From Candidatus Poseidoniaceae archaeon (GTDB lineage Archaea > Thermoplasmatota > Poseidoniia > Poseidoniales > Poseidoniaceae): a stretch of 64,000 nucleotides of DNA. The stretch spans positions 157,994-221,993 of the forward strand of contig CBFIJH010000001.1 of assembly GCA_965662895.1 (NCBI GenBank). The letters are read 5' to 3'. Every line of letters starts with the position of its first letter. Within the stretch, counting starts at the first letter, position 1. The notes under the pieces are model-generated. The model did not search any database and had not been told where the DNA came from. It saw nothing but the letters and a program-made list of their open reading frames with translations. Positions 3,077 through 56,353 of this stretch are shown in pieces. The translations under genes were made by a program, and so were the position numbers.

Positions 3077-3196
3077 TTGTCTAATCATTCTACCAATTTT
3101 CCTAAACCATATTCGTCGATAGAACTCAATATGTCTCATGAATATCGATTGACACGCAGGCAATGGAGTTATGAACGTCCACTCGATGAACGAACC

Positions 3197-6100: not shown

Positions 6101-6820
6101 GAAAATGAGCTCGATATGATGATCGAACAACTTCCATACAAGACATCATTGGAATTCTTTGATTCTCTTGACCTGAAGAACGACTATGATTCAATCGCCA
6201 TGGATTTGAACCAAGACGAGTACATTTCACACGACGAACTTGAAGAGGCAGTTGACAAATGTACGACCACGTTTAGCCCGTTCGATACGGATGGTGATGG
6301 AATTCCAGACATCGATGATCAATTCCCGAACGATCCAAGTGAATCAAAGGATGCAGATGGTGATGGAATTGGCGACAATGCTGACTTTGCACCGAGCGTC
6401 GCAAACGATGTTGTGTACGGTGCTGGTGGTGCAGTGCTCATTGTCCTGATCGGATTACTGGTGCTCTTCTTACGAGGTGGAGGTGGAACCAGTCGACAAC
6501 AGATGGATGATGAATGGAACAAGACGGATGCATTTTCAGAACAGATGTTGAACATGAACAGTCAGATTCCAACCTCCACAACTGCTCCAAATGCGCCTGA
6601 TTTGAATGCACCAATCCTCGTATCACCACCCGCCCAAGATACGAAGATTCCGATCTATGATTTTGGCCAATCAACCATCGAAGATACGGCAAACGAACAA
6701 CCATCAAGCAGTTTGATGGGAATGATGGATGCGAACGGGCGAGAACACATCGAGTATCCGATGAACAGTGGACGCCTTTGGTACCGTGACAATCCAGATT
6801 CGGATTGGATTAAGAATTAG
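3197..6820 (+). CDS. Giant acidic cell-surface mosaic protein: signal peptide, Cys-less C-type-lectin-like domain, LamG/ConA-like domain, three PPC (pre-peptidase C-terminal) domains, EF-hand-like loops, thrombospondin type-3-like Ca repeats, C-terminal TM anchor and cytoplasmic tail.
   Basis: Start moved to the internal ATG at 3197, giving MARGSPAVACTLILMMIASTCLVAPTQA, a typical signal peptide. Other evidence:
- C-type-lectin signature: SWENAAYKARSLDGYLTTIDD..EENTWVYE...LWIGLND..EGIYRWHDGTPFLYRNWGVDQP.
- PPC-like segments ending GIYYITVFSYRKASDFTIVADF, KWYILLDSESVFSGVSITASF and RFDITVVAEDDFSDVSIVAYW.
- DTNGNGLLNADEF, DTTGDGMIEFNEV and DTDGDGIPDIDDQFPNDPSESKDADGDGIGDNADF repeats.
- TM helix GAVLIVLIGLLVLFL near the C-terminus. 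Confidence 0.8.
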   Translation: MARGSPAVACTLILMMIASTCLVAPTQAQSSDIENIEVLHTAVNPDNNKTYHLLSASSWENAAYKARSLDGYLTTIDDVEENTWVYETFASFDNQSRHLWIGLNDVQDEGIYRWHDGTPFLYRNWGVDQPTGGEDSDYVHIASTNMGNIMPQTWNDLENNPEYFPVYGVVEVGRGADFSLRFDGHHDHIIIDHDEGLTPNGSLSIEATIKASNIDGIRFVTMKGDYGWGMYLTDGAIGYASEYSLSRHPTSNMSITENTWHTIGVEVTEGVGGMFTIDGIPAGNISAEDANIPEGDFGSNDCYTSGDSCDELYIARMGAGCDCYHFEGIIDDVSISFYENDIWEPASHWTFWEGEGSDTGDALNDGAVNRIGIIDGADWVMPDGSIVAQALELPNDEFLVLNDIQQGDTLLFYAELDEYTYMTDIAIYSWSEMFYDDWDYEGDMLFDAYVGYDRIPAPWDYDMELTSYWGSVFNSWTWPEYDVMWYSIVANEDIEELEILASWEVAAAPPSLDEMTELYNGVPIPSQNIQSDRNSYEASLEYYYVNVTDSLTELKIETYGGKGNIDLTLSSGGPIDPNYYYYYPEPYYYDEYSENGMQQDNVAWSMNDGNDEEVNLFDVEPGIYYITVFSYRKASDFTIVADFTYAPENADPSTAIELQPGIAYGPMSGYDGLDQYFFIDVPTGTERLEVDLDDGFGEATLHMRYENTPTASEADHHSGAPGAGDKIGFNNPTPGKWYILLDSESVFSGVSITASFEDLYVWEYDGTPIELFNDEDVHGLSAPAGEELYFYVDLESRAEELIITTYDGEGSLYITADGEIDYEDIFGFEEFDEFEFFEEDIFGEAFTSYGQGTSHDLYIYSPAAGRFDITVVAEDDFSDVSIVAYWKEDTREKPEPEPPTILDPDDIYSCDYELEEFFVEMDTNGNGLLNADEFRRSGPPEGTEFSDIDTTGDGMIEFNEVLAFACTCENELDMMIEQLPYKTSLEFFDSLDLKNDYDSIAMDLNQDEYISHDELEEAVDKCTTTFSPFDTDGDGIPDIDDQFPNDPSESKDADGDGIGDNADFAPSVANDVVYGAGGAVLIVLIGLLVLFLRGGGGTSRQQMDDEWNKTDAFSEQMLNMNSQIPTSTTAPNAPDLNAPILVSPPAQDTKIPIYDFGQSTIEDTANEQPSSSLMGMMDANGREHIEYPMNSGRLWYRDNPDSDWIKN

Positions 6821-7760
6821 ACTTGGTTCTTTTCTTTCTCAGTCCTGCTGATTCAAGCAGCCGAAGGATGTGTCGATGCAACTCAGGAAGGAGTTCAAAC
6901 ATGGCGATGGCCATCACAAACATGGCAAACAATGAAACCACCCGTGACGCATACGAATGTCCGAATTCGAACATGGACATGCCGAGGTACTCCCATCCTT
7001 CATAGGAAAGATGCATCCAAATGAGACCAGCGTTTCTGAATAGATTCAGAATATGGATAATTGGAACAGTGAAAAGCAATGCTCGAATTCTTCGTTTTCG
7101 ATCAACGTCCAATACGGAGATTGCCCCAATAAAGACAATCATGGATTGAAGTGCCGTACACGCAAGGACGAAATTGATGCCAATAAATCCACCATCGGCC
7201 ATGACCAATTCGGTTTGGAATGGATGTTCTGCAAATCCATCGGTCATGAACCACTTGTTTCCATCCCACTCGGACCACAGAAATCTGCCTTCATCCGTAT
7301 TCACCCAAGTGTCACCGAGTTTGATGTCAACCGTCCCCGTAAACGAGAGAAAAATCGCTACTTGGGATGCTACAAACCAAATCGCGAGAACCGACAACCA
7401 CGGGATGTGAGCAACGAGCAGGTAAGGGCCACCCGCATATGCAACGCATCCACGAGCCCAATTCAGTGCAGCACGGTCACGTTCGGTAAGTGAACGTGCC
7501 TCTGCAATCACCAAGGCTACCGAGATGGGTAGGGCAAGAGCGGTCATTATGGTCAGAACAAGATCCTCAAGTTCAAAGTAATACATCGAGTCGTTGAAAA
7601 AATAGAATCCAACGAGAATCCACCCTGCCTGAGCTTGCCTCGATACACCGTCATTGTGACGTTTATGCCACGAAATGGCTAACAAAACCATTCCAAGGGC
7701 GCCGGCAATGGTGGCAACATTCTTGGAAAGGAACATGGTTCTTCCAAAACCAATCCTCAT
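6810..7760 (-). CDS. Exosortase/archaeosortase-like polytopic membrane protein (possible ArtA-type).
   Basis: About 8 predicted TM helices. There is a Cys inside a TM segment (VLACTALQSM) followed by R/N-containing helices (DRKRRIRALLFTVPIIHILNLFRNAGLIW), reminiscent of the exosortase/archaeosortase Cys-Arg-Asn arrangement. The real start may be the internal ATG near 7736. It is convergent with, and overlaps by 11 nt, the surface protein gene. Confidence 0.4.
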   Translation of the reverse strand: MRIGFGRTMFLSKNVATIAGALGMVLLAISWHKRHNDGVSRQAQAGWILVGFYFFNDSMYYFELEDLVLTIMTALALPISVALVIAEARSLTERDRAALNWARGCVAYAGGPYLLVAHIPWLSVLAIWFVASQVAIFLSFTGTVDIKLGDTWVNTDEGRFLWSEWDGNKWFMTDGFAEHPFQTELVMADGGFIGINFVLACTALQSMIVFIGAISVLDVDRKRRIRALLFTVPIIHILNLFRNAGLIWMHLSYEGWEYLGMSMFEFGHSYASRVVSLFAMFVMAIAMFELLPELHRHILRLLESAGLRKKRTKSNS

Positions 7761-21604: not shown

Positions 21605-22876
21605 CTACTGGACGCTCATGTACCCATCTGGGTTATCTGAATGATGGATGGTTGCATCAAATCCGACTTTCGACGTTTGCCCGTCTTGATACCGTGACGG
21701 ATCAAGGCTCGAACCTTTTTGATTTTCAAAGATGTGCGTGTCCCGATCAGGTTGCCAACGAGTTACCATCGCCCATTCTACTCGCACAGGATTCGTTATG
21801 TCGATGTCTTCATCAACAATTGTAACCATTTTCATCGAGCGATGACCTGCTAAAGCTGCCTCGATGGCTTTTCGACCATCGTCTTCGGAAGTTTTCCGAA
21901 TTTTTACGACTGCAGCAAGCCATCCACAACCTCCTTCTGTCATATGGACATCAATGCAATCGACAACTTTGGCAACTGCCTCTTTGATGGTTGGAGAACG
22001 AGGCAAGCCCATGAGCGTCTTGTGTTCTGCCTCACCGGGAATGAGCGCATGGAAAATTGGATTGTTACGATGGAGAACGCCATCAACTTCGATAACAGGT
22101 TCTTGACGAACATCATCAACCGTTCCTGTAATATCGACATATGGACCTTCATCATCATCTTCCAGCGTGATGTGGCCCCACATAGCGTACTCAGCATCCG
22201 CAGGTACCTCAATTCCATTTGGTAGTTGAACCAATTGAAGTGGTTTATCGTACAATTTTTCATGAAGCGCCGCCGCTATTGTCAATTCATCGATTGGTTC
22301 ATCAAAGGACATCGCACCTGCAAGGAGTACAACAGGATCTGGAGCATTGACGATAGCGATTCGAACCTCTTCTCCACGTTCCCTCGCCTCGTCGACCATC
22401 GTTCGTAAGTGCCGGGGTACGAGACGAACGACCAGGTGATTCTTGTCACGCAAGAACTGCCGATGAAAACTCATGTTCCGGCGACCGTTCACCTCAGCGA
22501 TGATAACACTCGCTGACATGTATCGGCCCCGATCTTGTGGCCAGTGGTGCGGGATGGGTAAGTTTCGCAAGTCGACGTTTTCCTGCATTTGATCATAAAC
22601 AGGAGCTTCTGAGGCAGAAATAACTTCAGGAGTCGATGGATTTTTCATCGCCCAGGCAAGAGTGTCAATGTAGACCTCAGGTTGAATGCCAATGGCCTCG
22701 CAAAGCCTATCCCGTGTTAGCATGTTGACGGATATGCGCTGACCGGGAACCTCCTCGATGTTTTCGAACAACAGGTTTGGATGGCCTTGTTTTGTGCTTT
22801 GCTCCCAAATTCCGTGGACGAGACTAACTTGCTCATCGATTCGATGAGCATGTGACAGGTGATCTCGGAATGCCAA
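21605..22876 (-). CDS. UbiD-family (prenyl-FMN dependent) decarboxylase; candidate anhydromevalonate-phosphate decarboxylase of the archaeal mevalonate pathway.
   Basis: About 423 aa with UbiD-like overall similarity (split beta-barrel FMN-binding-like N-terminal part, RLVPRHLRTM and ITGTVDD regions). The size fits the archaeal AMPD-type UbiD homologs rather than the 490-aa bacterial UbiD. Confidence 0.55.
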   Translation of the reverse strand: MAFRDHLSHAHRIDEQVSLVHGIWEQSTKQGHPNLLFENIEEVPGQRISVNMLTRDRLCEAIGIQPEVYIDTLAWAMKNPSTPEVISASEAPVYDQMQENVDLRNLPIPHHWPQDRGRYMSASVIIAEVNGRRNMSFHRQFLRDKNHLVVRLVPRHLRTMVDEARERGEEVRIAIVNAPDPVVLLAGAMSFDEPIDELTIAAALHEKLYDKPLQLVQLPNGIEVPADAEYAMWGHITLEDDDEGPYVDITGTVDDVRQEPVIEVDGVLHRNNPIFHALIPGEAEHKTLMGLPRSPTIKEAVAKVVDCIDVHMTEGGCGWLAAVVKIRKTSEDDGRKAIEAALAGHRSMKMVTIVDEDIDITNPVRVEWAMVTRWQPDRDTHIFENQKGSSLDPSRYQDGQTSKVGFDATIHHSDNPDGYMSVQ

Positions 22877-24391: not shown

Positions 24392-26599
24392 ATGGGACGT
24401 AAAGAAGACAACATCAAAAAGGCTACAGAAGTCATGCACATTCTTCCACAGATTCGAAATCTGTGCATCGCTGCGCACATTGATCACGGAAAAACAACAC
24501 TTTCAGACAACTTGATCGCTGGAGCCGGAATGATGTCCAGCGATTTGGCTGGTGCTGCACGAGTTTTGGATTTTGACGAGCAAGAATCCGCACGTGGTAT
24601 TACCATCAACGCTGCATCTGCATCAATGGTCCACGCTGTTGATGAAACCGACTATCTGATCAACCTCATCGACACACCCGGTCACGTTGACTTCGGTGGT
24701 GACGTAACACGTGCTATGCGTGCGGTCGATGGTTGTTTCATCCTTGCATGTGCTGTTGAGGGTCCAATGCCGCAGACTGAAACTGTTGTTCGTCAAGCAT
24801 TGAAAGAGAAGGTAAAGCCTGTTCTCTTCATCAACAAAGTCGACCGATTGATCAACGAATTGCAAGTTACACCTGAGGACATGATGAGTCGATTCCAAGA
24901 GACCATCACCAAGGTCAACAAACTCATCAAGCAATTCGCTCCTGAAGAATTCAAGAAGGAATGGCAAGTCAGTGTTATCGACGGTACAGTAGCATTTGGT
25001 AGCGCATACCACAATTGGGGAATTACCATCCCATACATGAAGAAGTCCGGAGTAAGCATGACGGATATCTTCCAATACTGCAACGATGAGAAGCAAAAGG
25101 AACTAGCGCAAGCTGCTCCTGTTCACGAAGTTCTTCTCGACATGGCGGTAACAAAACTACCGAGCCCAGTCGATGCTCAGCCATATCGTATTCCGAACAT
25201 TTGGACTGGCGACCTCGACTCTGCAATTGGAAAATCCATGATGGCTTGTGACCCAGAAGCAGAACTTGCTATGATGATTACAAAAATTTGGATGGACCCT
25301 CACGCTGGAGAAGTTGCAGTCGGCCGTATCTATTCCGGCGCTATTTCGCAAGGTGAATCGGTTTTCGCTATCGGTGCTGCAAAACCTGAACGTGTTCAGC
25401 AAGTTAGCATGATGGTTGGTGGTGACCGAATCACTGTACCGAAAGTCGTTGCAGGAAACATCGCTGCAATTACAGGTATCCGAAGTGCTGCTGCTGGTGT
25501 TACTCTATCACGAGACAAGGACTTCACACCGTTTGAAGCAATACGCCATTACTCTGATCCGGTCGTTACGGTCGCCGTTGAGCCAAAGAGCATGAAAGAT
25601 CTTCCAAAGTTCATCGATGCACTTCGCTCACTCGCTAAGGCGGACGCATCCTTGCAAGTTACAACCAACCAAGAAACTGGTGAAGCGTTGTTGGCTGGAA
25701 TGGGAGAACTTCACCTTGAGATTACTGTTTACCGAATTGAGGAAGAGCAAAACATCAAGGTCAGTGTCAGCCCACCGATCGTCGTTTATCGTGAAGGTAT
25801 TCAAGGTAGTAACCGTGGACATGCTTTCGAAGGAAAGTCTCCGAACCGACACAACCGTTTCTTCTTTGAGATTGAGGCACTATCGGACGAAGTTGTCGGC
25901 GCTCTGCGCAATGGTGACCTCGGTGACGGTCCAGTGCGAAGCAGTGATGCAAAGGAAACCGGTAACAAGTTCGGTGAACTCGGAATGGACAAGGATTTGA
26001 TGCGAAAGATCTATGCCATCAACGGAACCAATGTATTGGTCAACGATACAAAGGGTATCCAAGGACTTCACGAGACTCGTGAGTTGATTATTGAAGCATT
26101 TAACGAAGTTTGCAAGAAAGGACCCATCGCCGATGAGCCTGTCCAAGGTATGTTTGTGCGACTCACAGATGCGAAACTCCACGAGGACGCGATTCACCGT
26201 GGACCTGCTCAAACTATCCCTGCAGTTCGAAACGGAATCAAGGGTGCAATGATGCGAGCCAAGACTGTAATTCTTGAGCCGATGCAGAAGGCATTCGTAT
26301 CCGTACCAAACGACTGGCTCGGTCAAGTTACGCGTGAGGTCACCAACCGACGTGGAATCATCGAAGACATGCCGAGTGAAGGCGATGTCACAACAGTCGT
26401 TGGTGTTCTACCAATCGCTGAAACCTTCGGTTTCTCAAACGACATTCGTGCAGCATCGCAAGGACGTGCAGTTTGGAACACAGAAAACCTCGGATTTGAA
26501 ATGCTTCCACCACAGTTGTTCGACAAGGTTGTTGGAGAAATTCGAACCCGAAAGGGATTGAAACCCGATCCAAACCCCGAATCCTATTATGCAGATTGA
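24392..26599 (+). CDS. fusA: Elongation factor 2 (aEF-2).
   Basis: The G-domain AHIDHGKTTL, DTPGHVDF and NKVDR motifs, and the diphthamide-region HRGPAQ. Confidence 0.95.
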   Translation: MGRKEDNIKKATEVMHILPQIRNLCIAAHIDHGKTTLSDNLIAGAGMMSSDLAGAARVLDFDEQESARGITINAASASMVHAVDETDYLINLIDTPGHVDFGGDVTRAMRAVDGCFILACAVEGPMPQTETVVRQALKEKVKPVLFINKVDRLINELQVTPEDMMSRFQETITKVNKLIKQFAPEEFKKEWQVSVIDGTVAFGSAYHNWGITIPYMKKSGVSMTDIFQYCNDEKQKELAQAAPVHEVLLDMAVTKLPSPVDAQPYRIPNIWTGDLDSAIGKSMMACDPEAELAMMITKIWMDPHAGEVAVGRIYSGAISQGESVFAIGAAKPERVQQVSMMVGGDRITVPKVVAGNIAAITGIRSAAAGVTLSRDKDFTPFEAIRHYSDPVVTVAVEPKSMKDLPKFIDALRSLAKADASLQVTTNQETGEALLAGMGELHLEITVYRIEEEQNIKVSVSPPIVVYREGIQGSNRGHAFEGKSPNRHNRFFFEIEALSDEVVGALRNGDLGDGPVRSSDAKETGNKFGELGMDKDLMRKIYAINGTNVLVNDTKGIQGLHETRELIIEAFNEVCKKGPIADEPVQGMFVRLTDAKLHEDAIHRGPAQTIPAVRNGIKGAMMRAKTVILEPMQKAFVSVPNDWLGQVTREVTNRRGIIEDMPSEGDVTTVVGVLPIAETFGFSNDIRAASQGRAVWNTENLGFEMLPPQLFDKVVGEIRTRKGLKPDPNPESYYAD

Positions 26600-27072
26600 G
26601 CATGATAACTGGGAACATTTCTGGTCTCTTTGCAACCACAGTAGGTGGTGTACCAAAGCCAGAAGTTGATTCAATCATCGTTGGAAAACTTGGTGTAAAA
26701 GACGAGATTATTCGAGATACAAAACATCACGGTGGAGAACAAAAAGCCGTGTGTATCCTCGCTGAGGAAATCGTTCAGGATTTGCGAGAACGTGGACACC
26801 CGATTGCTGGTGGGACGACGGGTGAGAACATCCTGTTGAGTGTTCCATTCGAAGTTCTTCAACCAGGTGTTGTTCTTGAATTCGATGAAGCAGTCCTCGA
26901 GATCACCATGGCAGCTACACCTTGCAAAACCATCGCTGAATCATTTTTGAATCAGGAGTTCACGCTCCTCTCCGACAAACGACATCCTGGAAGAACGCGT
27001 TGGTATGCACGAGTGCAAGTTGAAGGAATTATCAAAAATGGAGAAAATGTTGCAATCAACTCAAACGCTTGA
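26596..27072 (+). CDS. MOSC-domain protein (YiiM-like).
   Basis: KHHGGEQKAVC and GENILL motifs typical of the MOSC beta-barrel. It begins within 3 nt of the EF-2 stop. Confidence 0.55.
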   Translation: MSMITGNISGLFATTVGGVPKPEVDSIIVGKLGVKDEIIRDTKHHGGEQKAVCILAEEIVQDLRERGHPIAGGTTGENILLSVPFEVLQPGVVLEFDEAVLEITMAATPCKTIAESFLNQEFTLLSDKRHPGRTRWYARVQVEGIIKNGENVAINSNA

Positions 27073-28810
27073 GTTGAAGGTCTGTCAGTTCTCGTAATGC
27101 AAGCATTGCTGGACCATCTGGCAGACGATCCAAACAAGCATGCGCATGTTGATGATACTCATTTGCTTTGACACGAGCATATTCGATGGAGCCAAGTTCC
27201 TCCAATGCAGCGATTCCGTCTTGAATCATCTCCTCTGTTGCTTCTTCACCCTTTCCTAACACGGACAGGAGTCGTGACTTGGTTTCTGAAGTGGGTTGCT
27301 TGAGAGCATGAATGACCATCAGCGTCTGCTTACCTTGGGCAACATCCGAACCCGTTGGTTTCCCAAGCGTTGCTGAATCTGAAAGAACGTCAATTAAGTC
27401 GTCCATCAATTGGAAACAAAGACCTACGGAAAGACCCCAATCTGCAAGGCATTTGATGACGTCTTCATCGGCTCCCGCCACTCGTGCCCCAATTTCAGCA
27501 CAGATGAGAAACATGACGGCAGTTTTTCCTTCGATCATCTCAAGATATTCCTCTTCTGTGACTCGCTCGCGTGTTTCAAACTCAATGTCCATTTGTTGGC
27601 CTTCGGAAACTCGTCGAACCATCCAAGCGATTCGATTTACCAATGAAGGTATATCTTGCAAGTCAATATTTGCTGACATAACAAGTCGCTCAAATGCAAT
27701 GGCGAGCATAGCATCCCCTGCATTGATCGCTGTCGGCATATCGTACTCGATATGCACAGCATTCCGGCCTCGCCGAATTTCATCATTGTCCATGATGTCA
27801 TCGTGAACGAGTGTGAAGTTGTGAATGGTTTCAATCGCAGCACCAATATCGAGAAGACCAGAATGCGTATCGCCTACAGCCCGTCCAACCAGCCATGGAA
27901 GCGTTGCACGCATTCGTTTTCCTCCACCATGAATGAGATGCATCATTGCACCAGCCAGACGTTCATGACGAGAAGCAGTCAAACTCTCAACAATTCGCTG
28001 TTCAATGAACGGACGGACTTCTTTGATACTCGTCAAGAGATCTGCACCTTCAGCACTTGGCAGCATGTGCGTGACATCACCCATGTCGTGAATCTTGCCA
28101 TCTCGGAGTGCCTCACACGCATCCTTGTCACCTGCAGCGCTCCACCATTCAGGCGTCATAATTCTTGCCGCAATGCAACGGAACCAAGGTGCAATAACTT
28201 CGTCTGAATTATCAGCAACCAACATCGCGTCCAATTCCTCGAAGTTCACCCACCTTACTGCTGAGACTTCATTCGCATTCGGATGAAGTTCAACGTCGGC
28301 TTGAATCATGAGAATGTGATCAATTTCTCGTTCAATCCAGTCAGCATTCATTCTGGAACAATAGCGCATTTTCGTTATGAAATGAAAATCATCAATGCTG
28401 AGCGATGAAGCTGGAATCCCTAACTCCTGATCGAGTTTGCGAATTGCAGCAAGTTTTACGCCTCTTGCATCTGTTTCATCCATCTCATCCTCACTTGCAA
28501 GAGGATGTGAGCAACAAGAGTTTGCCCAAACGCTTGGGAACGTAATCTTGTCATGTGCACGTTGCTGAAGCAGCAATTTTCCTTCCATATTGAACAATAA
28601 AACACTGAACGCCCGATGAAGTGCACCGGACTTGAAGTGGCTGTCTGCTTTGCTTATTGGGCCAATGACCACATCGTTTTCGTCGACCTGTAGGACAGCT
28701 TCCGCCATCATGCTCACTTGTGTTGAATCGGGTGACTGGGCTGCCATCAATTTTGAAACAGTATTGTCAATATCCGCTTCTGGAACATCTCCGCTTGCGT
28801 AGTTCGACAT
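27056..28810 (-). CDS. Fusion protein: type-1 isopentenyl-diphosphate delta-isomerase (Nudix-fold) fused to geranylgeranyl/polyprenyl diphosphate synthase.
   Basis: The N-terminal half matches E. coli-type IDI: HRAFSVLLFNMEGKLLLQQRA and FPSVWANSCCSHP, with the catalytic Cys. The C-terminal half has GKRMRA, the FARM motif LVHDDIMDNDEIRRGRNAVH and the SARM motif FQLMDDLIDV. Start set at the ATG at 28810 (MSNYASG..). The upstream in-frame extension to 29011 overlaps a neighbouring ORF and looks non-coding. Confidence 0.8.
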   Translation of the reverse strand: MSNYASGDVPEADIDNTVSKLMAAQSPDSTQVSMMAEAVLQVDENDVVIGPISKADSHFKSGALHRAFSVLLFNMEGKLLLQQRAHDKITFPSVWANSCCSHPLASEDEMDETDARGVKLAAIRKLDQELGIPASSLSIDDFHFITKMRYCSRMNADWIEREIDHILMIQADVELHPNANEVSAVRWVNFEELDAMLVADNSDEVIAPWFRCIAARIMTPEWWSAAGDKDACEALRDGKIHDMGDVTHMLPSAEGADLLTSIKEVRPFIEQRIVESLTASRHERLAGAMMHLIHGGGKRMRATLPWLVGRAVGDTHSGLLDIGAAIETIHNFTLVHDDIMDNDEIRRGRNAVHIEYDMPTAINAGDAMLAIAFERLVMSANIDLQDIPSLVNRIAWMVRRVSEGQQMDIEFETRERVTEEEYLEMIEGKTAVMFLICAEIGARVAGADEDVIKCLADWGLSVGLCFQLMDDLIDVLSDSATLGKPTGSDVAQGKQTLMVIHALKQPTSETKSRLLSVLGKGEEATEEMIQDGIAALEELGSIEYARVKANEYHQHAHACLDRLPDGPAMLALRELTDLQLKRLS

Positions 28811-28878
28811 ATGAGCCCCAACCTTTCTTTTGAGAGGCGCTACATAGAGAGTTCGCCTCAGGTCGCAGAAAACGACGC

Positions 28879-29121
28879 CTACTTTCGCCGAATGGACCAA
28901 TTTTTTCGACCAAGCCCTTCGAGGGCTACGCCTGTCATTGCCCCCCATGCGAGAGGAGAATCGATGGCGAAGTAAAACATTGGAACCATGACAAGGAATG
29001 CTAGGATCCAATGATGGAGCCAGAATGTCTTTGTTCGGATATGAAATTTTATGTTCTCAGTTGTCCAACGAACAATGGCGTAACTTGCGACGAGACCAAG
29101 TGCGTACAAACCAAAGTCCAT
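28879..29121 (-). CDS. Small 2-TM membrane protein between IPK and the IDI-GGPPS fusion.
   Basis: An 80-aa ORF with two clear hydrophobic helices. Its position suggests co-transcription with the isoprenoid genes. Confidence 0.35.
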   Translation of the reverse strand: MDFGLYALGLVASYAIVRWTTENIKFHIRTKTFWLHHWILAFLVMVPMFYFAIDSPLAWGAMTGVALEGLGRKNWSIRRK

Positions 29122-29130
29122 AGCATCAAC

Positions 29131-29946
29131 TCAGGGTAAAATCGTCGTACCTCTCCACGGTTCACCACGAAGAAGTGCAAGGAGACGCTCAGGCTTCTCT
29201 CCATTGAAAAGATGAACACCGATTCCGGATTTGGCAACCAAATGCCCACGTGCCATTTTCAATCCAATTCCTCCAGTCACATCAATATCGGTTTGATGGA
29301 GTCCTTCGTACTCAATATTAGGCGACCATTCACGAATCAAATCATTCTCAGTTGCAACATGTGGTGGCACGCGTAGCAAACCATCAACCCCTCCCATTGC
29401 AAAAAGAAGGGATTCAATATTCCTCAATTCCAGTGACAGTCTCACAACGATATCATCTCCTGAAAGGATTCCAAACTTTCGTTCATCATCAACATCAACG
29501 ACATCGCCGAATGTAATGTGAACCGTCTTCGGATCTGTCTCAGAAAATCTCGTGAGTGAACCAGAGAATTCTGGTCCAAGATTGCGGGCCCAACGATGTG
29601 GTGGATGAGAGCAAACCTTCAATTTGAATCGTTCCAGTTCAGAGGCAACAATTTTGTTCAAATTCAGCATATCACCCCGAACGCTCTCAACTGCCTCAAA
29701 TTGCGATTGACAGAAATCATCACTCAGTTCGAGGTCGGGAAGGTAACCTTCATTCAGACGCCATCGTTTTGCTTTCAAATGACCAAAAGAACCCGCTCCA
29801 TGTACAAGGATGACTTGTATGCCGTCGTTCGTAATCGAGTGGACTGCTTCGCATAAGTCTCGAATGATTTCAAGATGTGCTACACATTCTTCGTCCTTTT
29901 TTGTGATGAGGGCACCTCCAAATTTAATGACGATGCGTCTCACCAT
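29131..29946 (-). CDS. ipk: Isopentenyl phosphate kinase.
   Basis: Amino-acid-kinase fold with IKFGGALITKK and the IPK His motif LVHGAGSFGH. Start moved to the internal ATG at 29946 (MVRRIVIKFGG). Confidence 0.8.
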   Translation of the reverse strand: MVRRIVIKFGGALITKKDEECVAHLEIIRDLCEAVHSITNDGIQVILVHGAGSFGHLKAKRWRLNEGYLPDLELSDDFCQSQFEAVESVRGDMLNLNKIVASELERFKLKVCSHPPHRWARNLGPEFSGSLTRFSETDPKTVHITFGDVVDVDDERKFGILSGDDIVVRLSLELRNIESLLFAMGGVDGLLRVPPHVATENDLIREWSPNIEYEGLHQTDIDVTGGIGLKMARGHLVAKSGIGVHLFNGEKPERLLALLRGEPWRGTTILP

Positions 29947-31074: not shown

Positions 31075-31139
31075 CCATTCATGAACCCTGCGGGTGAACG
31101 AACCGACTCAATCAAATGCTTGTTTCGTTTGGAAGCGAC

Positions 31140-32309
31140 ATGGTCGATGTTGCAATGGTCGGTGCTAGCCAAACAAAATTTGGCAACCATCCTCTTGGAC
31201 TCAAAGGGATGTGGTCTGAAGCAATGGAAAAAGCGATGCAAAGTGTTGATTTCGACTTTCATCCAACTCAAGTTGATGAAGCCTTCATTGGAAGCATCGC
31301 GTTTGGAGGATCACAATTAGGCAACACTGCCGCCCTTCTCACTGAGCATTCAGGAATGGAAGGCGTGAGCGTTCGGCGCGTTGAAAATGCATGTGCATCA
31401 TCAGGCTTTGCTCTCCGAGATGCATGGATGGCTATCAAAAGCGGACAAGCAGATGTTGTTGTGGCTGGTGGAATCGAGAAAATGAACGATTTATCAGCAT
31501 CAAGAAAACGGTATTGGCTCGGCGTTTCTGGCGACACTGAATGGGAACGCCTCGCAGGTCTAACATTTCCTGGAACCTATGCACTCACAGCACGACGCTA
31601 TTTTCATGAATTTGATTCCACACACGATGACTTGGTTCACGTTTCGGTCAAAAACCACATGCATGGGTTCGACAATGAAGTCGCTCACCTACGGAAACAG
31701 GTGTCATTCGAAAAGGCAAATTCCGGATTTATGGTCGCAGATCCTCTCACGCTCTACGATTGTTGTCCAACATCCGATGGTGCATCTGCCGTGATTTTGG
31801 TGGCAGATCATCTCGCTCACAACTTCACGGATACACCTGTCTGGGTCAAAGGCTCTGGCGCTGGTTCGGATCACCTCGCTTTGCATGATCGCCCAAGTAT
31901 CACAGAACTCCGGGCGACGCAGGCCGCTGCATCCAAGGCATACAAAACCGCAGGTGTCAATGCATCTGACATCGATTTGGCAGAAGTGCATGATTGTTTT
32001 ACCATCGCTGAAGTCCTCGCCACTGAAGATCTTGGCTTTGCATCTCGTGGGCAAGGTGGACGATTTGCTCGTGACGGAGAAGGACGGAGAAACGAAGGTC
32101 GTGTTGCCATTAATGCCAGCGGAGGTCTCAAGTCAAAAGGACACCCGCTTGGTGCAACAGGCACGGGTCAAGCTGTTGAAATCTTCAAACAACTGAGGCA
32201 TGAGGTTGAACCAAATCGCCAAATCAGAGATGCTGAGTTGGGTCTGACACACAACGTCGGTGGTTCGGGTGCAACCTGTGCGGTGCACATTTTTGGGAGG
32301 GAGCGCTGA
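31140..32309 (+). CDS. Archaeal thiolase (acetyl-CoA C-acetyltransferase, SCP-x type).
   Basis: MVDVAMVGASQTKFG, an active-site Cys region (ACASSG) and a C-terminal GHPLGATG motif. Start moved to 31140. Confidence 0.8.
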   Translation: MVDVAMVGASQTKFGNHPLGLKGMWSEAMEKAMQSVDFDFHPTQVDEAFIGSIAFGGSQLGNTAALLTEHSGMEGVSVRRVENACASSGFALRDAWMAIKSGQADVVVAGGIEKMNDLSASRKRYWLGVSGDTEWERLAGLTFPGTYALTARRYFHEFDSTHDDLVHVSVKNHMHGFDNEVAHLRKQVSFEKANSGFMVADPLTLYDCCPTSDGASAVILVADHLAHNFTDTPVWVKGSGAGSDHLALHDRPSITELRATQAAASKAYKTAGVNASDIDLAEVHDCFTIAEVLATEDLGFASRGQGGRFARDGEGRRNEGRVAINASGGLKSKGHPLGATGTGQAVEIFKQLRHEVEPNRQIRDAELGLTHNVGGSGATCAVHIFGRER

Positions 32310-33112
32310 TGACAATTCAACACATTTCCAATGCCGACGGTGACTTTGCATGCAGCATGTACGGACCAGAATGGGCGGGACCGGATGGGGACAGGCTCAC
32401 CTTGGCTCTCGCACTGCTGAAGCATTTAGGTTCAGGAAAGGTCCAATTGCATTCCTTCGAAAATCACCTTGTGTTCCAGCCAAGCGTTGGCATTTCAGAA
32501 ATTATAGAGTCAGCAACAGATTGGAACATTGCTGAGGATTCTGGCATGTATCTCCACGCCCATGCTGATTTGTTTCTCGTGGCGATGAGTACATCGAGCG
32601 AGGAACCGGTTTGGCCTCAATTTGATTCGATTGAATATTCGAAAGAATTGAAAAATGAGTTGGAAGTTCAATGGAAAAAAGAAATTTCTGGAGTGAGTCA
32701 GGGCGCATATGTATCACAGTCACAACACATGATTTCAACACCTTCACGACTCGGACTATTGGCTCAGCGGCATCAAGAACACCTCGTTTGGCCACCTCGC
32801 CAACTCAATGAAGATGGAGAACGTATTGAAACTGCAACGACGAAGTTGTCCGAGTCAGCTACAATCTTGACTTGGACGCGACTGAGTCCCGCTGGAGCAC
32901 CTTCTGAGTTCTCTGAACGAGCACCAATTCTGGATGGTGTTGCAACCGTTTTGGTCGCTTTTGATCAAGGACCGAAAGGGGTTTTTATGTTAGCAGACGA
33001 TGAAAAAGGGACACCGAGCATCGGATCTCGAGTATGTTTCGAAATCCGTCGATTGTATGGACAGGATGAAATGATTCATTATGGCTTGAAAGCGCGACTC
33101 TTAAATTCCTAA
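32309..33112 (+). CDS. DUF35-like OB-fold protein with a long N-terminal extension (thiolase partner).
   Basis: Start overlaps the thiolase stop (TGATG). The C-terminal ATILTWTRLSPAGAPSEF...GVATVLVAFDQGPKGVFMLADDEKGTPSIGSRVCFEIRR resembles the DUF35 OB fold. Confidence 0.5.
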   Translation: MTIQHISNADGDFACSMYGPEWAGPDGDRLTLALALLKHLGSGKVQLHSFENHLVFQPSVGISEIIESATDWNIAEDSGMYLHAHADLFLVAMSTSSEEPVWPQFDSIEYSKELKNELEVQWKKEISGVSQGAYVSQSQHMISTPSRLGLLAQRHQEHLVWPPRQLNEDGERIETATTKLSESATILTWTRLSPAGAPSEFSERAPILDGVATVLVAFDQGPKGVFMLADDEKGTPSIGSRVCFEIRRLYGQDEMIHYGLKARLLNS

Positions 33113-33159: not shown

Positions 33160-34176
33160 ATGGCTGGTTTTGGGGGTATCCGGAAAGGAAAAAAAGAAGC
33201 GGCAGATAATCTGAGCATCCAAGAAGATGGAGATTGTGCTCGCTGTGGAGGAGAAAGCCAACCATCAACGATGGAAGGCTATCTCGCCTGTACCCGCTGT
33301 TCATACGAGTGGGCAGATCCAAATCATGTGTCAAAGAAGGTGCGTGGACCGCCTCCGAATCACCGTCGCGATTCTGAATTAATCAATGAATTCAAGGCTG
33401 AAATGGAACGCGGCGACCTCAAAGGTGTACTCGGCGTCGATTCCAATCTCTCTGCTGAGCAAGAACAATCTCTGAAACGTCTCGAAGACAAATGGATGAG
33501 CGGCATGCAGGGTCATTACAATGCTGCATCTGAAGATCGGAAACCTCTGATGATTAGTTTTGATGATGATGACAATCTTGTTTCGACCGAGGTTGCTGCT
33601 TTGACAATCGTTTCAAATGGATTCGATGGAGGTGAAGAAATTCGACTCGAGTATCCTGGAATTGGAACCGAATTTTATGCCTACAACGAGCGGAGCCCCA
33701 CAGGTTGGAAACGTGGACGAAGCAGTGAAGAAACCGCCCGCTCGATCACCAACGTGATCAACAGATCCTCTCGGTTGGTCTATGCCAATCTTGAGGGAAG
33801 TCGAATTTCCTTTGAGTTACGCGACGACAAACTCAAACCCGAGTCGCTTGTACTGTTCGTTGACGACCCAGGCGGTCAGGACATCGTCGCAGAAAAAGGA
33901 GGAGTCATCCTCGATTTCCGCGACGTCAACGTCCTTGATGATTACAGGAATGTAATCGCTCTTGTTCTTGAAGATGGCATCATCTCTCCAAGCGAGGATC
34001 AAATGATGTGGGTTATGCGTCAGCAATTAGGAATTACGGAAGAACAACACGTTACGTTGGTGCAAGAAATCTTTGGGGCAAACGCTCTCAAAGAATGTCC
34101 AAATTGCAACAAGATGGCAGAATTGTATCCAGAATACTCTGCATGGTACTGTCAGCCTTGCGAAAGTTGGCTTTGA
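33160..34176 (+). CDS. Acidic protein with N- and C-terminal zinc ribbons; first gene of the actin-like module.
   Basis: N-terminal CARCGG...CTRCSYEW and C-terminal CPNCNKMAELYPEYSAWYCQPCESW ribbons, with an acidic middle region. 338 aa. Confidence 0.5.
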   Translation: MAGFGGIRKGKKEAADNLSIQEDGDCARCGGESQPSTMEGYLACTRCSYEWADPNHVSKKVRGPPPNHRRDSELINEFKAEMERGDLKGVLGVDSNLSAEQEQSLKRLEDKWMSGMQGHYNAASEDRKPLMISFDDDDNLVSTEVAALTIVSNGFDGGEEIRLEYPGIGTEFYAYNERSPTGWKRGRSSEETARSITNVINRSSRLVYANLEGSRISFELRDDKLKPESLVLFVDDPGGQDIVAEKGGVILDFRDVNVLDDYRNVIALVLEDGIISPSEDQMMWVMRQQLGITEEQHVTLVQEIFGANALKECPNCNKMAELYPEYSAWYCQPCESWL

Positions 34177-34253: not shown

Positions 34254-34284
34254 TGGACGGTATTCCCATAAATTGGCGAACGCT

Positions 34285-35310
34285 ATGGCAGAAGACGTAT
34301 TGTATATTGGAATTGATTTGGGAACCTTTCGTTCAGTCATGGTCTCCTCTGGTAACCACGAAGTAGAGGAACTCACAGTAATTGGAACACCAAAAGATCA
34401 GATCGCACGCAATTTCCTGAAGAGAGATGTTCTTTTTGGAGAAGAGGCATTGAAAAACCGACTTGCGTTGAATCTCTTCCGACCATTGGAACTCGGTGTC
34501 ATCAAAGACACACCAGAGGACCGTCAATTCATTGCCCACTTCATCACCCACTTGATTGGACTCTCTGACCCTGAAGAGCACGATCGAGTGGTTGCAGTCA
34601 TTGGTGCGCCAGCTGAAGCAAGTCACGTTGACAAAACGGCGATTTTTGATGCCGCTGCCGGCAGTGTCAACGCAGCCATGATTATTTCTGAGCCATTCGC
34701 TGTCGCCTACGCACTCGACATGATTGAGCACACGCTTGTCATCGATATCGGTGCTGGAACAACAGACCTTTGCCGTGTCTACGGAACGATTCCAGGTCCA
34801 GGCGACCAAATGCACACTGGCTATGCTGGCGACTACGTCGACGCTCAAATCATCAAGGAGGTTCAATCAAAGTACAACGGTGCTCAGATTACAAAAGACA
34901 TGGCACGACGCTGGAAGGAACAGTATTCCTTTGTGTCCACATCAACTCCGGATGATCCAATCATGGTCGACTTCTCCATCGAAGGGAAGGCCATGAATCT
35001 CGACATCACGGATTGCATACAGAGGGCTTGCGAGTCCATTGTCGACCCCATTGTCGAAAATGTGAAGCAACTGATCGCTGACTCCAACCCTGAATATCAC
35101 GACCAATTCCGCCGAAATATGGTTCTTGCCGGTGGCGGATCTGGTATCCGTGGTCTCGGTGCACTCATCGAGCGCCGACTCTCCGACATGGGCGATGTCA
35201 GCGTTCACGTTGTTGATGACCCAGTTCGACTCGGTGCAATGGGTGGTCTCCGATTGGCTATGGAAGTTCCAGAAGACATGTGGAAGAACCTCACCCTCGC
35301 ATCGCGTTGA
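34285..35310 (+). CDS. Actin-fold ATPase of the MreB / Ta0583-like family (archaeal actin homolog).
   Basis: Phosphate-1 motif LYIGIDLGTFRSV, phosphate-2 motif LVIDIGAGTTDL and adenosine motif VLAGGGSGIRGLGALIE (compare MreB LTGGGALLRGL). About 340 aa. Start set at the ATG at 34285 rather than the upstream TTG. Confidence 0.75.
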   Translation: MAEDVLYIGIDLGTFRSVMVSSGNHEVEELTVIGTPKDQIARNFLKRDVLFGEEALKNRLALNLFRPLELGVIKDTPEDRQFIAHFITHLIGLSDPEEHDRVVAVIGAPAEASHVDKTAIFDAAAGSVNAAMIISEPFAVAYALDMIEHTLVIDIGAGTTDLCRVYGTIPGPGDQMHTGYAGDYVDAQIIKEVQSKYNGAQITKDMARRWKEQYSFVSTSTPDDPIMVDFSIEGKAMNLDITDCIQRACESIVDPIVENVKQLIADSNPEYHDQFRRNMVLAGGGSGIRGLGALIERRLSDMGDVSVHVVDDPVRLGAMGGLRLAMEVPEDMWKNLTLASR

Positions 35311-55310: not shown

Positions 55311-56353
55311 AATGGATTTTTCCGATACACATCCCAAGGCTTGCTGCCACGCTTACGAAACATCGAAGTTCGCATGGATTTGAGAATGGTCCAGGCAAAT
55401 TTGAACGTACGTTTGATCGATTGGATGGGATGAAGCATGTACCAAAGAGGATTTTTCCATTCTCGTAGAGGATACCTCAGTTGACGAAGCATACCCGCAG
55501 GAATCTCTTCACTGACACCGTATTTCATTGGTCTTCGATTCTTTGGCATAAAGTACGTTCCAAACAATTGATCCCACACAGGAAGAAAAGTCGAGTAATT
55601 TGTCCATATGGCATCTCGCTCGTTTGTATGATGCCAGTGATGGAATTCAGGAGTAATGATGAGTCGATGCAACCACTTCAAGCGCCATCGAACATTGGCA
55701 TGGAGGAACAGTCCAAGAATCAGTTGTGCAGCAGCCAGCGCACCAGTTAATTCAAAGGAAAATCCTGCTGCTACCAAAAAGACAAATGCTGGTGCAAGAA
55801 TGGTTCCGTCCAATGGATGGCCACGGAATCCACTGGCCCAGTCCAAATGCTCAGTTGAGTGGTGAATGGCATGGAACTTCCAAAGGACCGGAATTTCATG
55901 ATAAAATCGATGCGTCCAGTACACGAGCATATCGAAGAGGAGAATGCCCAGTAGAGGCATGTACTGTTCAGGAATTTGCGCAACATACGGTCGAAGAAGA
56001 AGGCCTGGAATCCATGCCAAGCTGAGAACACCAACCACGATGGCAACAATTCCAGTAAGCAAACCAAGCAATGGTGAAGCCAAAGCGTAGCCTACATCGG
56101 TATCGAGATGAGGTCGTCGAATTTTTTGTCCTTTGTGGCGAGGGAACATCTTTTCGAACGGTACAACAAGGACAAAAAGCAACAACACAACGAAGATCCC
56201 TTCAACGGAGATGTATAATGCAACAGCGATTAAGGCGAGGGTAAGCAGTCGAAGAATCATCGAGACAAGGCGGGTTTTGAAACCAACTGTCTCTTCCATG
56301 GATGATTCATAGAATGAGCGATTAATAGAGATGTTTGGTTCATGAATCATCAC
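55307..56353 (-). CDS. Fatty-acid hydroxylase superfamily membrane protein (sterol desaturase/C-4 methyl oxidase-like).
   Basis: Histidine boxes HRFYHE, HAIHHS and HHWHH, with N-terminal TM helices. Confidence 0.65.
   Translation of the reverse strand: MMIHEPNISINRSFYESSMEETVGFKTRLVSMILRLLTLALIAVALYISVEGIFVVLLLFVLVVPFEKMFPRHKGQKIRRPHLDTDVGYALASPLLGLLTGIVAIVVGVLSLAWIPGLLLRPYVAQIPEQYMPLLGILLFDMLVYWTHRFYHEIPVLWKFHAIHHSTEHLDWASGFRGHPLDGTILAPAFVFLVAAGFSFELTGALAAAQLILGLFLHANVRWRLKWLHRLIITPEFHHWHHTNERDAIWTNYSTFLPVWDQLFGTYFMPKNRRPMKYGVSEEIPAGMLRQLRYPLREWKNPLWYMLHPIQSIKRTFKFAWTILKSMRTSMFRKRGSKPWDVYRKNPF

Follow-up and report, generated by a model that had tools for sequence, protein, structure and literature searches.

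A Type-1 IPP Isomerase Domain Fused to a GGPP Synthase-Type Prenyl Synthase Is Conserved across the Order Poseidoniales

Organization of the Locus

Within the window (the whole stretch of 64,000 nucleotides that was analysed), three genes follow one another on the minus strand, as had been described in a sequence-only reading of this DNA. The first gene of this ipk-(small ORF)-idi::ggpps row is isopentenyl phosphate kinase (IPK; 29131–29946, 271 aa), which matches NF040647 (IPPK_Arch; 140.6 bits, cutoff 120) and PF00696 (71 bits) in NCBIfam and Pfam profile searches. After 9 nt comes a small ORF encoding a hydrophobic protein of 80 aa (28879–29121) and, after another 68 nt, the fusion gene (27056–28810), in which a type-1 IPP isomerase (IDI1) continues into a type-I short-chain prenyl synthase of the GGPP type (GGPPS). 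The fusion gene begins with the ATG at 28810 and encodes 584 aa plus a stop, one residue fewer than the 585 aa given earlier. A TTG start at 29011, which would give 651 aa, was rejected: the longer frame would run into the conserved small ORF, and the relatives all begin with MSNYA.

The IDI1 half comprises residues 1–249 (28064–28810) and was identified by TIGR02150 and the alignment to E. coli Idi. The prenyl synthase half comprises residues 250–584 with the stop (27056–28063) and was identified by PF00348, the IdsA and GGPP_syn models, and the solved structures 5jfq and 1wy0. The Met249 codon at the domain junction (28064–28066) was recognized by comparison with a lineage in which the two genes are split (see below).

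Two context genes may belong to the same pathway. A UbiD-family gene on the minus strand (21605–22876; PF01977 and PF20696; TIGR00148 316.6 bits, cutoff 244.85) is a candidate anhydromevalonate-phosphate decarboxylase, which would supply isopentenyl phosphate to IPK; this neighbour is also present in L082, a locus from a related long-read genome. An archaeal-type thiolase on the plus strand (31116–32309; Pfam thiolase domains; NF004720 443 bits, cutoff 420), syntenic in MGIIa loci, scores 403 bits with the archaeal acetyl-CoA acetyltransferase model, below the cutoff of 600, and is a candidate acetoacetyl-CoA thiolase for step one of the mevalonate pathway.

The Isomerase Half

The type-1 IPP isomerase domain spans residues ~28–249 and is preceded by an N-terminal extension (residues 1–27) specific to MGIIa. 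The NCBIfam model TIGR02150 (IPP_isom_1) gives 154.9 bits, above its curated equivalog cutoff of 105.8, and PRK03759 gives 135.1 against a cutoff of 127. Pfam places its NUDIX domain at residues 64–207. The motifs LHRAFSVLLFN (64–74), QQRA (82–85) and NSCCSHP (97–103) were located in the translated protein; all IDI, FARM and SARM motifs quoted earlier are thus present. Alignment to E. coli Idi pairs the catalytic Cys67, Glu116 and Tyr104, together with Trp161, with C100, E162, Y150 and W209, the metal ligands His25, His32, His69, Glu114 and Glu116 with H58, H65, H102, E160 and E162, and the diphosphate-binding Lys21, Arg51, Lys55 and Glu87 with K54, R84, K88 and E129.

The closest solved relative of this half is human IDI1 (2icj, E 1e-50; E. 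coli Idi, ~1e-12). With human IDI1 the half is ~44% identical over ~200 residues; with E. coli Idi, as with the short Nitrosotenuis IDI1, the identity is only ~30%. The C-terminus carries a eukaryote-like WW...IHDM tail. In a neighbour-joining tree of 24 sequences, a long group (eukaryotes and MGII) and a short group (E. coli and Nitrosotenuis) were separated with 74–84% support; MGII was not recovered as a single IDI clade in this tree, where support within the long group was 1–50%. Judged by these residues and profiles, the N-terminal half is predicted to be a true type-1 IPP isomerase of the eukaryote-like long form. The long form of the IDI, the surviving split lineage and the occurrence of IDI1 and GGPPS as separate genes in Thaumarchaeota had been overlooked in the sequence-only reading.

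The Prenyl Synthase Half

The C-terminal half contains Pfam polyprenyl_synt (PF00348) at residues 283–528 with 226 bits against a cutoff of 27, and both the FARM (D337-DIM-D341, nt 27788–27802, minus strand) and the SARM (D470-DLI-D474, nt 27389–27403, minus strand). The closest solved relatives, aligned over the full length, are the archaeal GGPPS 5jfq (E 4e-63) and 1wy0 (E 2e-56), and the identity to solved archaeal GGPPS is 40–50%. The best NCBIfam models are IdsA and GGPP_syn. None of the chain-length equivalog cutoffs was reached (IdsA 288/468, GGPP_syn 255.8/500, IdsB 178.5/475), and a C25 synthase model scores 240 bits, also under its cutoff; because of this, the assignment of a C20 product rests on the similarity to solved enzymes and on the residue preceding the FARM. 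In type-I GGPPS, the chain is limited to C20 or shorter when a bulky aromatic residue stands five positions ahead of the FARM. The corresponding residue here is F332, and the stretch HNFTLVHDDIMD in the chain-length region is identical to that of 5jfq. The C-terminal half is thus classed as an archaeal short-chain synthase of the type-I GGPPS kind, with GGPP as the presumed product.

Conservation of the Fusion

The fusion is real, not an assembly artefact, and is conserved across the order Poseidoniales. A protein database search returned, among the matches listed, at least 120 near-full-length homologues of 584–601 aa from independent ENA, JGI, NCBI, Tara and Logan assemblies, and a single uninterrupted frame crosses the domain junction in 68 species-representative Poseidoniales loci. 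The protein is conserved at 50–89% identity across Poseidoniaceae and Thalassarchaeaceae. The junction sequence is invariant within MGIIa and varies among MGIIb clades. The earlier reading had set the fusion gene next to IPK; it does lie directly downstream of IPK in the window, and IPK likewise precedes it directly in every Poseidoniales locus long enough to cover this position. The earlier proposal of an in-frame fusion between a true type-1 IDI and a full trans-prenyl synthase was borne out by profiles and catalytic residues, and the recommended search for this architecture in other genomes found it in more than 100 independent assemblies.

The Small Membrane Protein

The 80-aa protein has two to three hydrophobic segments and an invariant C-terminus, ALEGLGRKNWSIRRK. 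Among the 15 closest species loci, 12 carry an intact ORF (dN/dS ~0.06); the ORF is absent in L006, L007, L009 and all more distant Poseidoniales loci examined; in loci without it, the gap between IPK and the fusion gene is ~60–115 nt. No Pfam or NCBIfam family matched. A search among 5.8 billion proteins yielded just 57 clusters of homologues, all of ~80 aa and all from Poseidoniales, and none outside the closest clade. These observations mark the small ORF as a genuine gene that purifying selection maintains and that was inserted, in one lineage, between IPK and the fusion gene. The earlier description of a small hydrophobic ORF between the two genes therefore stands, but not its role as a conserved partner.

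Origin of the Fusion

The order IPK-IDI2-GGPPS was found in loci of Thermoplasmata, Methanosuratincola, Bathyarchaeia and Thermoproteota, and the seven other archaeal loci compared carry separate genes as IPK-IDI2-GGPPS or IDI2-GGPPS, in agreement with the earlier view that the fusion is unusual for archaea. Because other archaea share this order, the eukaryote-like IDI1 can be placed in the slot of IDI2, joined to GGPPS. No IDI2 or second prenyl synthase was detected by tblastn in the window and in the ~14-kb Poseidoniales loci.

In one Poseidoniales lineage (L067, L069 and L071), idi1 and ggpps are split, with an ATGA stop/start overlap. The split form is represented by clusters of 32 and 10 members with proteins of exactly 235 and 332 aa, including two contigs of ~1.86 Mb, and is sister to all fused forms in a neighbour-joining tree of GGPPS (bootstrap 80). 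The junction reads ...IHDMGDVTH-M-LPSAEG in the window and ...GVLK* / MSLPES in the split lineage, and the distance from PWF to GGKR is 82–92 aa in fused and 83 aa in split forms. Met249 thus appears to be a relic of the GGPPS start codon, and the fusion appears to have occurred without an added linker. It is proposed, on this single-gene tree, that the change ran from split to fused: IDI2 within the conserved archaeal row would have been replaced in place by a eukaryote-like IDI1, and the loss of the ATGA overlap would then have linked the end of one protein straight to the start of the other.

Comparison with Known Systems

Human IDI1 (2icj/2dho) shares with the isomerase half the catalytic Cys/Glu/Tyr, the His/Glu metal site, the insertion after CCSHPL and the C-terminal WW...IH(R/D)(M/L) tail. 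In contrast to human IDI1, the present domain belongs to an archaeal host, forms one covalent chain with a prenyl synthase and takes the gene position that in other archaea belongs to IDI2, a non-homologous, FMN-dependent enzyme. The second half resembles the archaeal type-I GGPPS of Geoglobus acetivorans (5jfq) and Pyrococcus horikoshii (1wy0) in fold family, FARM, SARM, Phe at −5 and the common chain-length stretch; it differs in bearing a 249-residue N-terminal IDI1 and in scoring under the equivalog cutoffs, so that its product length is a prediction. The order and strand of IPK, isomerase and GGPPS are those of the archaeal row (mvk)-ipk-idi2-ggpps, whereas in Poseidoniales the isomerase is of type 1 and fused to GGPPS, and one subclade adds the 80-aa gene after ipk.

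IDI1 in Thaumarchaeota was reported previously (PMC3533463). In the Nitrosotenuis row mvk-ipk-idi1-ggpps (L075), IPK is likewise followed by an archaeal IDI1 and GGPPS, whose genes adjoin directly, with a stop at 5236 and a start at 5237. Nevertheless, they are separate, and the IDI1, a short, bacterial-like protein of 213 aa, falls into one group with E. coli Idi and not with MGII and the eukaryotes.

The closest natural analogue is the IDI-squalene synthase fusion of diatoms and stramenopiles (PtIDISQS; Cafeteria P0262), which also has an N-terminal long-form IDI1 and a C-terminal isoprenoid-chain enzyme. The partner there is squalene synthase, two steps further down and not a direct consumer of DMAPP, and the protein is eukaryotic and membrane-anchored. 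The Poseidoniales protein shares the character of a natural IDI fusion, a lineage-conserved long-form IDI1 in frame with a downstream isoprenoid enzyme, and is an analogue, not a member, of the IDI-SQS family. The same two activities, leading from C5 units to GGPP, were physically linked with increased flux in engineered Idi-CrtE by means of RIAD-RIDD tags; that linkage is synthetic, non-covalent and of 1:2 stoichiometry in bacterial and yeast hosts (PMC6751169).

Proposed Function and Alternative Explanations

We consider it quite probable that the fusion acts as a bifunctional enzyme in Marine Group II (MGII; Poseidoniales): a single chain would carry out the two final stages of GGPP supply, and its gene follows that of the preceding enzyme. 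IPK would phosphorylate isopentenyl phosphate to IPP, the N-terminal isomerase would turn part of the IPP into DMAPP by metal-dependent Cys/Glu acid-base chemistry, and the C-terminal synthase would condense DMAPP with three IPP to GGPP (C20). From there, GGPP would go into archaeal ether lipids and, possibly, into the synthesis of carotenoids or retinal. What the fusion may offer is a fixed 1:1 stoichiometry and proximity, with DMAPP made where it is consumed. Channelling, as proposed in the sequence-only reading, is plausible but conjectural. An AlphaFold2 model of the fusion, from a 35-sequence alignment with all sequences at least 86% identical, has a mean pLDDT of 43, too low to place the two active sites relative to each other. 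The use of strict channelling is not obvious, as the pool that IDI brings to equilibrium diffuses freely and GGPPS takes three IPP per DMAPP. Nor is the fusion essential, since the split form works in one lineage.

The doubts raised in the sequence-only reading, that the read-through could be a sequencing or assembly artefact or that the N-terminal half could be a generic Nudix hydrolase, carry a negligible probability. Although the gene of L082 is broken by a frame change into pieces of 290 and 296 aa, the many full-length homologues from independent assemblies and the 68 loci open across the junction exclude the artefact. The bare NUDIX label of Pfam on the N-terminal domain is outweighed by the TIGR02150 score above cutoff (Nudix hydrolase models of NCBIfam reach 32 of 300), by the complete set of IDI-specific catalytic residues and by the identity to human IDI1. 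It is also unlikely that the prenyl synthase half is an IdsA-like bifunctional FPP/GGPP synthase or a C25 geranylfarnesyl synthase and not a dedicated GGPPS; the ranking of IdsA as best model, the C25 score and the unreached cutoffs would fit such products, but F332, the stretch shared with 5jfq and the GGPPS position of the gene in the ipk-idi-ggpps row of other archaea argue for GGPP. Still less credit is given to a membrane-tethered complex of IPK, the 80-aa protein and the fusion, in which the small protein would anchor GGPP synthesis at the membrane. Its hydrophobicity, strong purifying selection and tight spacing to both genes are in line with a tether, yet three close relatives and all other MGIIa and MGIIb loci retain the IPK-fusion pair without it, and its homologues are confined to the closest subclade; as the rest of the Poseidoniales loci lack it, it does not serve as a tether in general.

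A more serious alternative, which we regard as possible though not favoured, is a fusion without kinetic role: two overlapping genes, coupled in translation, would have lost the stop codon between them in a near-neutral event that at most fixes co-expression, while the domains act independently on freely diffusing pools. Since the split and fused junctions are colinear, with no added linker and a relic Met, a single small indel that restores the frame where the ATGA overlap lies would be enough to join the genes; moreover, the split lineage persists and is abundant, and MGIIb clades differ in junction sequence. Against this, the fused state is kept in 68 loci over a range of 50–89% identity, the MGIIa junction is invariant, and independent IDI-prenyl synthase and IDI-squalene synthase fusions arose elsewhere. 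When Idi was artificially linked with CrtE (GGPPS), carotenoid output rose 2.3- to 5.7-fold in E. coli and, in yeast, lycopene output rose by 58% (PMC6751169). Taken together, retention, the invariant MGIIa junction, the independent fusions and the gain from tethering suggest a recurrent advantage.

A broader reading joins these elements: the IDI half would stem from a marine eukaryote, have displaced IDI2 in place inside an ancient ipk-idi-ggpps row and have become one protein with GGPPS; this self-priming GGPP synthase would need no substrate but IPP and would show real kinetic coupling, and the 80-aa membrane protein would be a new recruit in one genus. As a whole, this reading is rather doubtful. 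If true, inter-domain transfer, non-orthologous displacement and gene fusion would have taken place at one locus with the split intermediate still living.

Significance

No description of an archaeal IDI-GGPPS fusion was found in the literature searched; the fusion departs from known enzymes by an incremental step, and its small membrane neighbour is a local addition. Marine Group II, which is uncultured, is among the most abundant archaea of the surface ocean. The fusion protein would be the entry point of the whole C20 isoprenoid supply of MGII. The membrane lipids of MGII are debated in connection with the "lipid divide", as archaeal isoprenoid lipid genes occur without G1P dehydrogenase (PMC7852524 and PMC6461757). 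Annotation pipelines label the fusion either "IDI" or "GGPPS" and drop one function, so that reconstructions can call IDI or GGPPS missing. The locus would document, stepwise, how a non-homologous isomerase displaces IDI2 and then fuses, and the natural fused and split versions offer a ready-made comparison of whether fusing IDI with GGPPS improves flux, as metabolic engineers do artificially.

Gene Organization of the Locus

The IPK–fusion block, at the coordinates given by the sequence-only reading, consists of three co-directional genes on the minus strand: isopentenyl phosphate kinase (IPK; 29131-29946, 271 aa), a small ORF (28879-29121, 80 aa) and the fusion gene (27056-28810, 584 aa), which joins a type-1 IPP isomerase (IDI1) half to a prenyl diphosphate synthase (GGPPS) half. 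The IPK stop codon is followed after 9 nt by the start of the small ORF, and 68 nt lie between the small ORF and the start of the fusion gene. A TTG start at 29011, which would lengthen the fusion protein, was dismissed as it overlaps the small ORF and is used by no relative. The kinase passes the archaeal IPK equivalog of NCBIfam (140.6 against a cutoff of 120).

At the 3′ side, a MOSC-domain gene on the plus strand (26596-27072) is convergent with the fusion gene and overlaps its end by 17 nt; this neighbour was found in Marine Group IIa (MGIIa) loci only and is absent in MGIIb. Among the Poseidoniales loci long enough to show the genes concerned, the row of thiolase, Tpt1, zinc-ribbon protein, IPK, fusion gene, MOSC (MGIIa only) and EF-2 is kept. 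The background of the window is that of an ordinary archaeal chromosome, with genes for EF-2, ribosomal protein S7, exosome, proteasome, SBDS and TiaS. Judged by its named relatives, it belongs to Candidatus Poseidoniaceae (Marine Group IIa).

Reality and Spread of the Fusion

The fusion is real. A search of 5.8 billion proteins returned at least 120 homologues of 584–601 aa, each with both Pfam domains, from independent ENA, JGI, NCBI, Tara and Logan assemblies, with some contigs of more than 1 Mb among the matches listed. In a survey of contigs with one genome per species, 71 Poseidoniales loci across Poseidoniaceae and Thalassarchaeaceae matched the fusion gene at 50–89% identity, and in 68 of them the match is covered by one unbroken frame. 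The homologues from independent assemblies and the open frame in these loci rule out a frameshift or assembly artefact, and the single polypeptide first proposed from the sequence is thereby borne out. The existing names of the protein, "isopentenyl-diphosphate delta-isomerase" at NCBI and "geranylgeranyl diphosphate synthase type I" at JGI, each omit one of its two functions.

A frame change splits the gene into 290-aa and 296-aa products in a related long-read genome (L082, 6001-7760 of the fetched locus, ENA contig of 1.9 Mb). The likely cause is an error or a disruption of recent date. The 290-aa product was also found on two further large contigs; systematic homopolymer error, real disruption or a recoding site could each account for it. 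Two MAGs labelled as Alphaproteobacteria, an uncultured Rhodobiaceae (CALDQY010000021.1) and Salipiger bermudensis (CAXQWT010000099.1), carry the archaeal EF-2/IPK/fusion locus at 87% identity, and these contigs are likely mis-binned.

Identity of the Two Halves

The NUDIX domain spans residues 64–207 (Pfam), and a generic Nudix hydrolase was considered for the N-terminal half. This is ruled out by its scores above the curated type-1 IPP isomerase cutoffs of NCBIfam (TIGR02150, 154.9 against 105.8; PRK03759, 135.1 against 127), by the Nudix-hydrolase models of the same library, which score the protein far under their own cutoffs, and by a complete set of isomerase residues. In the alignment to E. 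coli Idi, whose residue numbering was verified against the aligned sequence, all metal ligands and catalytic residues are present: H25, H32, H69, E114 and E116 correspond to H58, H65, H102, E160 and E162 for the metal, C67, Y104 and W161 to C100, Y150 and W209 for catalysis, and K21, R51, K55 and E87 to K54, R84, K88 and E129 for diphosphate binding, roles that are established for the E. coli enzyme. Assignment of this half to the type-1 isomerase family is thus confirmed.

The IDI1 half is eukaryote-like in sequence. Its identity to eukaryotic IDI1 is 44–49% (human, about 44%, E 1e-50; Albugo, about 48%; the IDI part of the Cafeteria IDI–squalene synthase fusion, about 45%), whereas it is only about 30% to short bacterial-type forms, such as E. 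coli Idi and Nitrosotenuis IDI1 (about 30% each). Two further traits are shared with eukaryotic IDI1, an insertion that follows CCSHPL and a WW...IH(R/D)(M/L) tail at the C-terminus. A neighbour-joining tree separates the long IDI1 group, the fusion's IDI1 included, from the short group with 74–84% support. Because branching inside the long group is without resolution in this tree, gain of IDI1 from a eukaryote by transfer is offered here as a hypothesis.

The polyprenyl_synt domain spans residues 283–528 (Pfam), and both aspartate-rich motifs expected of a trans-prenyltransferase were located, FARM as D337-DIM-D341 and SARM as D470-DLI-D474. The fifth residue before FARM, the chain-length position of type-I GGPPS, is F332. 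Among solved structures the nearest are two archaeal GGPP synthases, those of Geoglobus acetivorans (5jfq, E 4e-63) and Pyrococcus horikoshii (1wy0, E 2e-56), and the stretch HNFTLVHDDIMD is the same in 5jfq. Since the cutoffs of the chain-length-specific NCBIfam equivalogs are not reached (IdsA, 288 against 468; GGPP_syn, 255.8 against 500), we infer on good grounds, rather than take as demonstrated fact, that the synthase half makes a C20 product.

The Small ORF

The small ORF is, judged from its sequence conservation, a real gene. Among the 15 closest species-level loci, 12 carry homologues of about 80 residues, with a median dN/dS of about 0.06 and saturated synonymous sites; the C-terminus ALEGLGRKNWSIRRK is invariant, and the product has two to three hydrophobic segments. 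The ORF is absent in three close relatives, where the spacer between IPK and fusion gene is 79 nt, and in all other MGIIa and MGIIb loci compared; in the whole protein database it forms only 57 clusters, all of about 80 aa and all from the same clade. A local role is conceivable, but the IPK/IDI–GGPPS module does not in general include it. The earlier idea that it may tether the complex to the membrane is unlikely to hold, given its confinement to those 12 loci among Poseidoniales.

Origin of the Fusion

Seven non-Poseidoniales archaeal loci retrieved via the GGPPS half have the FMN-dependent, non-homologous type-2 isomerase (IDI2) directly upstream of GGPPS: three of Thermoplasmata (L072–L074), two of Bathyarchaeia (L076, L078), one of Methanosuratincola (L077) and one of Thermoproteota (L079). 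This agrees with the expectation that a type-2 isomerase and a separate synthase are the usual archaeal state. The isomerases of L072, L077 and L078 are type 2 by TIGR02151 (375–409 bits against a cutoff of 281), while the class of those of L073, L074, L076 and L079 rests on tblastn similarity. IPK stands immediately before IDI2 in five of the seven; in L074 the upstream gene is present only as a 3′ part at the contig end, and the L076 contig starts inside the IDI2 gene. From this order it follows that the ipk-idi-ggpps row is old, and IDI1 fills the IDI2 slot in Poseidoniales; a tblastn search over the window and the Poseidoniales loci, of about 14 kb each, gave no IDI2 and no second prenyl synthase. 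The Nitrosotenuis locus (L075) reads mvk-ipk-idi1-ggpps with the genes separate and abutting, in agreement with the IDI1 already reported in Thaumarchaeota (PMC3533463).

One Poseidoniales lineage retains separate genes (L067 and L069, both 5971-7640; L071, 1807-3509). At these three species-level loci IDI1 has 224–235 aa and GGPPS 332–341 aa in differing frames, and in L069 the idi1 stop and ggpps start overlap as ATGA. Sequencing error as the source of the split is ruled out by a 32-member cluster of the 235-aa IDI1, two contigs of about 1.86 Mb among them, and a 10-member GGPPS cluster in which every protein has 332 aa. The junctions are colinear, split ...GVLK* / MSLPES... corresponding to ...GEVKMSNN... 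in fused MGIIb and ...GDVTH-M249-LPSAEG... in the window, and the PWF and GGKR motifs lie 82–92 aa apart in all fused forms and 83 aa apart where the genes are split. These features indicate that fusion brought no linker and that Met249 (codon 28064-28066, minus strand) was once the start codon of GGPPS. A neighbour-joining tree built on the GGPPS half, with other archaea as the root, places the split lineage as sister to every fused form of the order (bootstrap 80). This tentatively suggests one fusion event, later than the divergence of the split lineage.

Other Genes of the Window

A UbiD-family decarboxylase gene (21605-22876, minus strand), about 6 kb from IPK and a neighbour in L082 too, may encode the anhydromevalonate-phosphate decarboxylase that belongs to the archaeal form of the mevalonate pathway. 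Two successive plus-strand ORFs, of 267 aa (32309-33112, its start falling on the final base of the thiolase stop codon) and 338 aa (33160-34176), gave no hit to a Pfam or NCBIfam family; from where they lie, they may be partners in the archaeal complex of thiolase and HMG-CoA synthase. A 765-aa protein (53013-55310, plus strand) combines a photolyase N-terminal domain with a FAD amine-oxidase or desaturase-like domain, and together with the adjoining fatty-acid-hydroxylase superfamily gene (55307-56353, minus strand) could be tied to carotenoid or lipid modification. A 1247-aa protein (3077-6820, plus strand) has C-type lectin, PPC and EF-hand domains, a combination unusual in an archaeon, and an actin/MreB-like protein (34273-35310, plus strand), syntenic in L082, has matches to the models of archaeal Salactin and Volactin as well.

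Proposed Function and Significance

Observed here are the order of the genes, the identity of the domains, the completeness of both active sites and the conservation of the fused state; in the route that we propose, IPP would be produced by IPK, DMAPP by the IDI1 half, and GGPP would be built by the synthase half from one DMAPP and three IPP. Fusion would provide equal amounts of both activities, with DMAPP made beside its consumer; true channelling between the halves is plausible as a further effect. Engineered Idi–CrtE tethering raised carotenoid flux 2.3–5.7-fold in E. coli and lycopene by 58% in yeast (PMC6751169). Two independent fusions of IDI with a prenyl synthase were seen outside Poseidoniales. 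In P0133 (L080, 1279-2949) the IDI is of eukaryote type and its partner a type-III GGPPS; in P0217 (L081, 1215-2798) the IDI is short, of bacterial type, and its partner is a polyprenyl synthase, the gene being flanked by UbiA prenyltransferase, methyltransferase and SMR genes in a UbiA operon. In stramenopiles IDI was also fused independently, the partner being squalene synthase, as in the known diatom PtIDISQS. The flux gains and the recurrence of IDI fusions suggest, by analogy, that the IDI–GGPPS arrangement can be advantageous.

Both component enzymes are known, and fusions of consecutive pathway enzymes are common. The fusion sequences are already public, under half-correct names, and no description of the Poseidoniales IDI–GGPPS fusion was found in the part of the literature that our search covered. 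We regard the fusion as of moderate interest because it spans a globally abundant uncultured order with debated lipids, because the locus records a displacement and a subsequent fusion whose intermediate still survives, and because the fused and split forms allow an engineering principle to be tested on natural enzymes.
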